From NCBI RefSeq assembly GCF_047606665.1, contig NZ_JASGEF010000047.1, forward strand, positions 34,172 through 98,171: a DNA stretch of 64,000 bases. Direction: 5' to 3'. Positions 47,064 to 47,268 of this stretch are shown one piece after another. The notes under the pieces are model-generated. The model saw only the letters and a program-made list of their open reading frames with translations. It did not search any database and had not been told where the DNA came from. How positions within the stretch are numbered: the first letter of the stretch is position 1; each line of letters starts with the position of its first letter. A program made the position numbers and the translations under genes. The stretch comes from Micropruina sp. (GTDB lineage: Bacteria > Actinomycetota > Actinomycetes > Propionibacteriales > Propionibacteriaceae).

Positions 47064-47080
47064 CGGGTCTCCTTGGTGCA

Positions 47081-47262
47081 GGGGGACGGTTCTTCTCGTG
47101 CGAATTTCGCCTCTTGGGGACGGTTCTTCTGGTGCGATTTTCGGTGGGGGTGGGGACGGATCTTGGGCTCACGCTGACCGGAAGAACCGTCCCTCGCGTG
47201 TGAGTTTCGAACGAAAAGAACCGTCCCCGGTGTGCGAGTTTCGAACGAAAAGAACCGTCCCC
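47081..47262. repeat. Array of ~36-bp composite repeats filling the nrdE-nrdF intercistronic gap
   Basis: Motif A (GGGGACGGTTCTTC) occurs at 47081, 47116 and 47152 (degenerate). Its reverse complement occurs at 47181, 47216 and 47250. Motif B (GTGCGAGTTTCG-like) occurs at 47098, 47132, 47198 and 47232, always in the same orientation. Confidence 0.85.
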
Positions 47263-47268
47263 AATGGT

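Follow-up and report, generated by a model that had tools for sequence, protein, structure and literature searches.

Between nrdE and nrdF of the class Ib RNR operon of Micropruina sp. lies an array of short repeats that changes orientation at its centre. An earlier reading, made from the sequence alone, took this array to be a structured RNA element of the nrdHIEF transcript that might set the nrdE:nrdF expression ratio or bind a protein. Is the array a dedicated part of this operon, or does it belong to a repeat family with an origin of its own? We addressed this question in the window, by which we mean the whole stretch of 64,000 nucleotides that was analysed, and in related loci from other genomes.

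Layout and folding of the array between nrdE and nrdF

The operon lies on the minus strand, with nrdI and nrdH upstream of nrdE. The spacer is limited by the nrdE stop codon (47269-47271, minus strand) and the nrdF ATG (47061-47063), and it is filled as follows.

46089..47063, minus strand: nrdF, class Ib RNR beta subunit (NCBIfam)
47064..47268, no strand: whole gene-less array, A-B-A-B-A / loop / A'-B-A'-B-A', filling the nrdE-nrdF spacer (from the sequence)
47069..47074, minus strand: nrdF Shine-Dalgarno AAGGAG, outside the hairpin, 5 nt before the ATG (read from the sequence)
47082..47094, plus strand: core A copy 1, GGGGACGGTTCTT; in the mRNA sense the last A', its foot 7 nt 5' of the nrdF Shine-Dalgarno
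47098..47112, no strand: linker motif B, GTGCGAATTTCGCCT, a decayed palindrome of the form GTGCGAnnnTCGCAC
47116..47128, plus strand: core A copy 2, GGGGACGGTTCTT
47132..47146, no strand: linker motif B, GTGCGATTTTCGGTG, more decayed
47152..47164, plus strand: core A copy 3, GGGGACGGATCTT, one mismatch
47165..47181, no strand: central 17-nt loop between the arms, GGGCTCACGCTGACCGG
47182..47193, minus strand: core A' copy 1, AAGAACCGTCCC as written on the plus strand
47198..47212, no strand: linker motif B, GTGTGAGTTTCGAAC
47216..47228, minus strand: core A' copy 2, AAGAACCGTCCCC as written on the plus strand
47232..47246, no strand: linker motif B, GTGCGAGTTTCGAAC
47250..47262, minus strand: core A' copy 3, AAGAACCGTCCC(C) on the plus strand; in the mRNA sense the first A, starting 6 nt after the nrdE stop
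47269..49509, minus strand: nrdE, class Ib RNR alpha subunit (NCBIfam)

The sequence-only reading had described three A cores followed by three reverse complements at about 36 bp, and this layout was confirmed, the earlier figure being roughly right (measured spacings of 34, 36, 34 and 34 bp). Between the cores it had placed a second motif, B (GTGCGAnnnTCG or GTGCGAnTTTCG-like), said to keep a single orientation. The four positions and the one written orientation were found as described (GTGCGAATTTCG, GTGCGATTTTCG, GTGTGAGTTTCG and GTGCGAGTTTCG at 47098, 47132, 47198 and 47232), but the single orientation of B is only apparent. The motif is a decayed form of GTGCGA-NNN-TCGCAC, which is present in perfect form at 62190-62204 (GTGCGA-GAT-TCGCAC) and in the flank of a transposase gene of another Micropruina genome, L072 (GTGCGA-ATC-TCGCAC). 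Because B is palindromic, its written form is the same on either arm, unlike that of A, which flips. In the rest of the window, apart from the two arrays, motif B is no commoner than chance.

With at most one mismatch allowed, the 12-mer GGGACGGTTCTT occurred 13 times in the window against 0.32 expected, and none of 100 shuffles reached 13. Seven of the 13 matches belong to a second array.

62094..62326, no strand: second array, with four forward cores, three reverse cores and B palindromes, in the convergent spacer of mshC and a menC-like gene

In the operon (minus-strand) sense, the nested-stem fold that had been proposed for 47064-47268 was borne out in silico: the RNA forms three nested A:A' helices with a folding energy of -99.9 kcal/mol (z = -6.8), starting 6 nt after the nrdE UGA and ending 7 nt before the nrdF AAGGAG. 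The opposite strand folds too (-110 kcal/mol, z = -5.4), as that of any inverted DNA repeat would. A promoter and terminator scan gave neither a promoter nor an intrinsic terminator on the minus strand in the spacer, the hairpin being followed by CUGCACCAAGGAG without a U-tract, and the spacer had no Rfam match at E <= 1. In E. coli operons, REPs can stabilise mRNA or undergo processing, and the malE-malF REP is the classical case of a 3' stabiliser. The comparison with REPs made in the sequence-only reading holds in silico.

Two candidate interpretations of the array were tried and rejected. A 70-codon ORF on the minus strand (47060-47272) has its GTG on the nrdE stop (GTGA) and its TGA on the nrdF start (ATGA), and was judged fortuitous, its frame being unconserved and its product without a family match. 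A CRISPR was rejected on three counts: the 'spacers' are themselves repeated, the orientation flips and there are no cas genes.

A separate element was observed further upstream. A cobalamin riboswitch (Rfam RF00174, 90 bits; 50639-50816, minus strand) precedes nrdH and is the sole Rfam match in the region. Availability of B12 probably switches this class Ib RNR operon off, and such a shut-off implies a B12-dependent RNR elsewhere in the genome.

Dispersal of the core and the associated TIRYT gene

When one genome per species was scanned for pairs of cores 18-30 nt apart, the same 12-nt core was found arrayed in at least 117 stretches. Among the stretches listed, the hosts were Clostridia, Lachnospiraceae, Bacilli, Muribaculaceae and Micropruina, the GC content of the loci ranged from 24% to 72%, and the array period varied from 15 to ~45 nt. 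The loci were collected by exact 12-mer, so that conservation within the core is partly by construction; the search leaves the flanking positions free of this bias, and there the GC classes concur: position -1 is G in 64-85% of copies, and positions +12 and +13 are T in ~45-67%.

The arrays also share a polarity. When opposite neighbours no more than 120 nt apart were counted in the loci listed (at least 117), there were 61 forward-then-reverse junctions and 4 reverse-then-forward junctions, a ratio left unbiased by the choice of loci through two direct cores. At least 57 forward-then-reverse clusters were present in the loci fetched, and the 64-kb window itself holds two gene-less arrays. The nrd array is forward-then-reverse, like other gene-less arrays. 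According to a crude ORF caller, the arrays of the high-GC loci listed occupied 8 co-directional, 7 convergent and 1 divergent spacers and filled them to within 8-50 nt of the flanking ORFs. A preference for co-directional and convergent spacers is the distribution described for REPs. A full-text literature search with the core sequence returned only chance matches in unrelated papers.

One further position in the window can be compared with another genome. At 31908-31990 the window has no array, and the corresponding stretch of Micropruina 5N177 (L068, 800-1110) carries one of 3+4 units. The gene beyond the L068 array also differs, and the window retains a short look-alike of an array edge, GCGGACGCCGGCGTCG. 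When the two were compared as a possible empty site, the left flank proved to be rearranged and no duplication was readable. The array may mark a rearrangement boundary.

To identify genes that accompany the core, ORFs of at least 90 aa within 600 nt of a core in the loci listed (at least 117) were clustered by all-against-all BLASTP. The sole widely recurrent cluster was a protein of ~230-285 aa (~255 aa), found at 8 of the loci listed, two of them Micropruina MAGs. It matched Pfam Y1_Tnp with E values of 1e-10 to 1e-19 and NCBIfam REP_Tyr_transpos ('REP-associated tyrosine transposase') with 75-82 bits, the cutoff being 80. An HUH motif (HVH, as NHVHL) and the class-2 signature Y---NP (Y(V/I)xxNP), followed by (R/K)WSS, are readable in the protein sequences. 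For comparison by BLASTP, published TIRYT and RAYT sequences were reconstructed from Additional file 5 of the paper by Di Nocera and colleagues (PMC3733652). The protein was 36-42% identical over ~145 residues to published TIRYTs (gbm 2474, dau 2153, pca 3049, sml 4509 and sml 1152; E 1e-30 to 1e-40) and 17-28% identical to the E. coli RAYT b228. Its C-terminal part (~215-246) gave sub-threshold matches to HTH_28, HTH_23, HTH_38, Sigma70_r4_2 and HTH_11 (E 0.0008-0.06), which would be compatible with the HTH tail described for TnpA-Y1 subclass 2.1 (Quentin et al. 2018, PMC6006769). A sequence search of the PDB with the transposase gave no match.

The arrays bracket this gene. For seven of the 8 clustered genes, the upstream side has 1-5 forward cores, which end 62-320 nt ahead of the start codon, and the downstream side has 1-6 reverse cores, which begin 9-111 nt past the stop codon; the GGGG ends of the cores point outward. 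Altogether, a gene bracketed by inverted cores was seen at at least 9 loci, namely the Micropruina MAGs L072, L050 and L219 and 6 others. The left flank of the L072 gene, GGGGACGGTTCTCTTTCGTTCCAAACTCGCACGCCGGGGACGGTTCTT, is nearly identical to the window's GGGGACGGTTCTTTTCGTTCGAAACTCGCACACCGGGGACGGTTCTT (mRNA sense) and consists of the same A+B composite unit. The MAG with this B-type TIRtron also holds a gene-less array of the B type, and L012 is 80% identical to the array of the window.

Micropruina 5N177 uses a different unit. The product of its TIRYT gene (P0149) shares 62% identity with the L072 protein, and the gene and nrdHIEF are on one 703-kb contig. On the two sides of the gene stand units of GGGACGGTTCTCccggtcacca, here called the 22-nt type, 5 of them forward and 6 reverse; the nrdE-nrdF spacer of this genome contains 3+10 units of a type identical to those flanks. 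On the sequences compared, the linker type changes together with the transposase copy resident in the genome, and the 12-nt core does not change. Such a pattern would be expected of an enzyme that recognises the core and of arrays that are derived from, or homogenised against, the resident element. A tblastn search with the L072 transposase found no TIRYT gene within the 64-kb window; a resident TIRYT gene with B-type flanks is predicted elsewhere in the window's genome.

The three Micropruina TIRYT genes have another feature in common. The perfect DnaA-box word TTATCCACA lies within a conserved GAGTTATCCACA about 70-80 nt upstream of each of them, in gene orientation (L072 3510-3518, L050 7231-7239 and L219 819-827), and the word has 7 occurrences in 219 loci. 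Its position is intriguing because the C-termini of subclass 2.1 proteins are said to resemble the DNA-binding domain of DnaA.

The nrdE-nrdF spacer among Micropruina relatives

Spacers were taken from 80 metagenome loci, from L023 and from 21 loci that encode an NrdF ~100% (P0002), 97% (P0016) or 96% (P0034) identical to that of the window. The window's own NrdF, for which an exact look-up gave no recorded entry, marks the organism as a Micropruina. Grouped by nucleotide identity of nrdF to the window's gene, the spacers of the relatives are as follows.

L198, L202, L204: nrdF 96%; 78 nt, no core
L199: nrdF 95%; 70 nt, solo A' and half a B unit
L200, L203, L205, L206, L207: nrdF 95-96%; 203-312 nt, with 4+3, 7+3, 5+2, 3+2 and 4+3 units of the 22-nt type (linker ttggtcacca)
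L201: nrdF 94%; 351 nt, 3+10 units of the 22-nt type and one B-type unit adjoining nrdF
L208, L209, L210: nrdF 92%; 219-287 nt, B-type, 3+4 and 3+6 units
L211-L217: nrdF 92%; 102 nt, 2+2 units with a third linker
L218 (M. sonneratiae): nrdF 92%; 99 nt, no core
L023: nrdF 90%; 348 nt, 5+3 units with a fourth linker
L118: nrdF 90%; 33 nt, no core
L195: nrdF 88%; 32 nt, no core

The spacers thus hold from 0 to 13 units of four linker types. These come mostly from short-read assemblies, in which tandem units may be miscounted or collapsed; presence, absence and unit type are robust to this. The MAG name of L201 contains 'ont', which suggests Nanopore reads. The window's closest relatives, at 96% nrdF nucleotide identity, have a repeat-free spacer of 78 nt and an unchanged operon. 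The solo A' of L199 is clearly a deletion remnant. L208 and L210 are identical at 600/600, 974/975 and 300/300 nt of their flanks, and their arrays differ by exactly two 34-nt units. The unit adjoining nrdF (cgcaccagAAGAACCGTCCC...accaagga) is common to the window, L199 and L201, and this suggests one old insertion that would have been followed by expansion, replacement and loss. No clean empty site and no target-site duplication was found in the spacer comparisons of the relatives.

Comparison of the spacer with that of relatives had been named in the sequence-only reading as a check on its proposal, and the outcome speaks against an RNA element dedicated to nrd. Spacers of 33, 32, 78 and 99 nt have no core, and the nrdHIEF order is unchanged; the same repeat family is also present in the second array of the window and at many other loci. 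The hairpin does not appear to be a dedicated nrd regulator, because relatives do without the array. Our preferred reading of it is a by-product with a possible REP-like stabilising action, and an effect on the nrdE:nrdF ratio is possible as a side effect.

Several other observations concern the same spacer. L209 and L211 are identical over nrdF (975/975) and the downstream 300 nt (300/300), match at 569/600 positions over the last 600 nt of nrdE, and have arrays of different types, which points to a recombination mosaic with its break at the repeat-filled spacer. The repeat-free spacer of L218 contains other small palindromes (gtcatcccggcgaaggccgggatctc and a variant copy), as does that of L198 (gagatcccggatctc), and a second repeat family may occupy the same site in Micropruina. 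A contig of 1148 nt from an RNA run, which comprises nrdF, the 78-nt spacer and nrdE of a repeat-free relative, indicates that the two genes are co-transcribed there, if the run is truly RNA. The RNA contigs X25-X30 break at arrays, and raw DNA reads (X23 and X24) cover the array at a depth of 0-3.

Spacers of other actinobacteria were surveyed as well. Among 40 distinct actinobacterial nrdE-nrdF spacers (L118-L197), 15 are no longer than 58 nt and are unstructured. In 18 of the 25 spacers of at least 60 nt, a count confined to nrdE-nrdF spacers, unrelated palindromic elements produce folds with z < -3; examples are TACGACGGCGGG...CCCGCCGTCGTA and CTGGAGGCGCGG...CCGCGCCTCCAG, and L177 and L192 contain tandem repeats. 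L147 and L178 have very stable spacers of ~340 nt. That of L147 includes two core-like words, each one mismatch off the 12-mer (e.g. GAGGACGGTTCCC), and a distant relation of the family may occupy the site there.

The array belongs to a dispersed repeat family and has the polarity of that family; it varies in unit number and linker type among relatives, and it is dispensable. Our preferred explanation, which we hold with good confidence, is that the spacer contains a gene-less, head-to-head cluster of the terminal-array repeat of a TIRYT-type element that is resident in Micropruina genomes. That the motif might prove to be part of a known MITE had been allowed for in the sequence-only reading, and something essentially of that kind was found, in that it belongs to dispersed TIRYT/TIRtron terminal inverted arrays. 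The array could be a non-autonomous derivative, an internally deleted TIRtron without its gene, similar to a REPIN or MITE. A TIRYT enzyme would recognise the conserved 12-nt core and would seed or maintain the array in trans, and whole units might then be gained or lost by slippage or unequal exchange, as in a VNTR. In the nrdHIEF mRNA, the resulting hairpin (~-100 kcal/mol) could shield the upstream nrdHIE part from 3' exonucleases; alternatively, it could be cut by a double-strand RNase, as are E. coli REPs. Arrival of the array by transposition is a step that we infer only, and to date movement of DNA has been demonstrated for none of the TIRYTs (Quentin 2018, PMC6006769).

Alternative readings and known systems

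It is possible that the cores are instead a DNA site array recruited by the host, which binds a domesticated TIRYT (through its HTH) or a host protein and serves chromosome organisation, supercoiling or recombination, as has been proposed for BIMEs, and which is not mobile. Such sites would account for the constancy of the core between phyla and GC contents alongside drifting linkers, and for one-sided arrays with periods down to 15-22 nt, which cannot form local hairpins. The TIRYT genes are also apparently low-copy, as class 2 genes are described to be (PMC6006769), and the L209/L211 mosaic breaks at the spacer. However, there is no evidence of a host function, near-identical strains differ in the presence, absence and copy number of arrays, and the arrays mirror the element's own ends, as a deletion derivative would. 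We regard this alternative as unlikely.

Somewhat less credit is due to a reading in which the nrdE-nrdF spacer is a favoured or even selected landing site for hairpin elements in Actinobacteria. The array would then be a contingency-like VNTR that grows and shrinks by single units, perhaps through the action of the TIRYT enzyme on the iterated 12-nt core. The resulting changes in hairpin size would tune the stability of nrdHIE relative to nrdF and leave strains with heritable differences in the ratio of RNR subunits; we consider this rather improbable.

A dedicated and selected cis-regulatory RNA of nrdHIEF that sets the NrdE:NrdF ratio through segmental stability, processing or protein binding is, in our judgement, very improbable. 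The strength of the hairpin (-99.9 kcal/mol, z -6.8) favours it, as does a position exactly between the stop codon and the Shine-Dalgarno sequence that leaves the latter free. Most of the Micropruina lineages sampled have some array at the site, and unrelated stable hairpins occur in 18/25 of the other actinobacterial nrdE-nrdF spacers of at least 60 nt. Yet the repeat also lies between convergent, unrelated genes and in many other contexts, and relatives at 88-96% nrdF identity have spacers of 32-99 nt without an array in the same gene order. Moreover, neither the unit number (0-13) nor the linker sequence is conserved, the two strands fold equally well, and no Rfam family matches.

Finally, purely local tandem-repeat expansion of the VNTR or MIRU type, without a transposase and with the 70-codon bridging ORF as a translational coupler, would explain whole-unit differences in copy number between near-identical strains and an ORF (47060-47272) that overlaps the nrdE stop and the nrdF start, but it is highly improbable and largely refuted by dispersal: the same core is present at many unlinked loci, in other phyla and beside a Y1 transposase, the array changes orientation partway, neither the 34-nt nor the 22-nt unit is divisible by 3, the frame needs a spacer of 1 mod 3 and fails in most relatives (219, 287, 351, 312, 203, 102 and 348 nt), and the ORF has no family match.

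As a cluster of TIRYT terminal repeats, an odd structure inside an essential operon is explained as selfish repeat DNA from a barely studied branch of the HUH transposases. Three points are new for that branch. The ends can be iterated arrays of a 12-nt core that is constant across 24% to 72% GC with drifting linkers; scattered arrays follow, in linker type, the transposase copy of their genome; and arrays can sit between translationally adjacent essential genes, with 0 to 13 units among relatives. Most useful is that a hypervariable array separates two adjacent essential genes; it provides a natural allelic series in which REP-like hairpin effects on operon expression can be tested. The nrdE-nrdF spacers are also a likely cause of assembly breaks and a possible marker for strain typing of Micropruina in activated sludge.

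Among known systems, MIRUs of mycobacteria are intercistronic tandem repeats in an operon spacer, with strain-variable copy number and an ORF that overlaps the neighbouring stop and start codons. The present array resembles them as an actinobacterial operon-spacer array of variable copy number with an ORF over the nrdE stop and nrdF start; it differs in its switch of orientation, a unit that is not a multiple of 3, an unconserved ORF and the link to a transposase. MITEs derived from DDE transposons have terminal inverted repeats and a target-site duplication; inverted arms are present here, and no pair of empty and filled sites was clean enough for a duplication to be read.

The resemblance to the REP/BIME/REPIN repeats and RAYTs of E. 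coli and Pseudomonas (Bertels and Rainey 2011, PMC3116915) is closer. In both, short repeats outside genes form inverted pairs and clusters, usually sit 3' of genes where the spacer is co-directional or convergent, and are tied to a single-copy Y1 transposase. A classical REP unit is 20-40 bp long, is an imperfect palindrome in itself and bears a GTAG or CGTC tag at its end; core A is not self-complementary and has no GTAG tag, and a hairpin forms only where opposite arms pair or at the linker palindrome B. In some units a CGTC inside A' is followed by a B palindrome with a 6-bp stem, but the stem-length and AT-start rules of the CGTC families do not hold. The protein is also much closer to TIRYTs than to the E. 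coli RAYT.

The closest known family is TIRYT/TIRtron, whose TIR repeat families (Di Nocera, De Gregorio and Rocco 2013, PMC3733652) have been equated with TnpA-Y1 class 2, subclass 2.1 (PMC6006769). As in that family, a RAYT-like HUH/Y1 protein with Y---NP is encoded by a gene bracketed by inverted repeats that start with GGGG, and gene-less repeat copies are scattered as dimers or clusters. The C-terminal HTH extension of the family (of the Bac_DnaA_C, HTH_23 or HTH_28 type) may have a counterpart in the sub-threshold HTH matches. The core GGGGACGG matches GGGGWSAS, which the authors stated for 'some' TIRs only (PMC3733652), at 7/8 positions, with G for A at position 7. The main text of that paper mentions neither Actinobacteria nor Firmicutes, and the hosts here are Actinomycetota and Firmicutes. 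In contrast to a single long TIR, the ends described here are made up of a 12-13-nt core iterated in arrays, with linkers specific to the lineage, and in Micropruina one such array lies within an essential operon.
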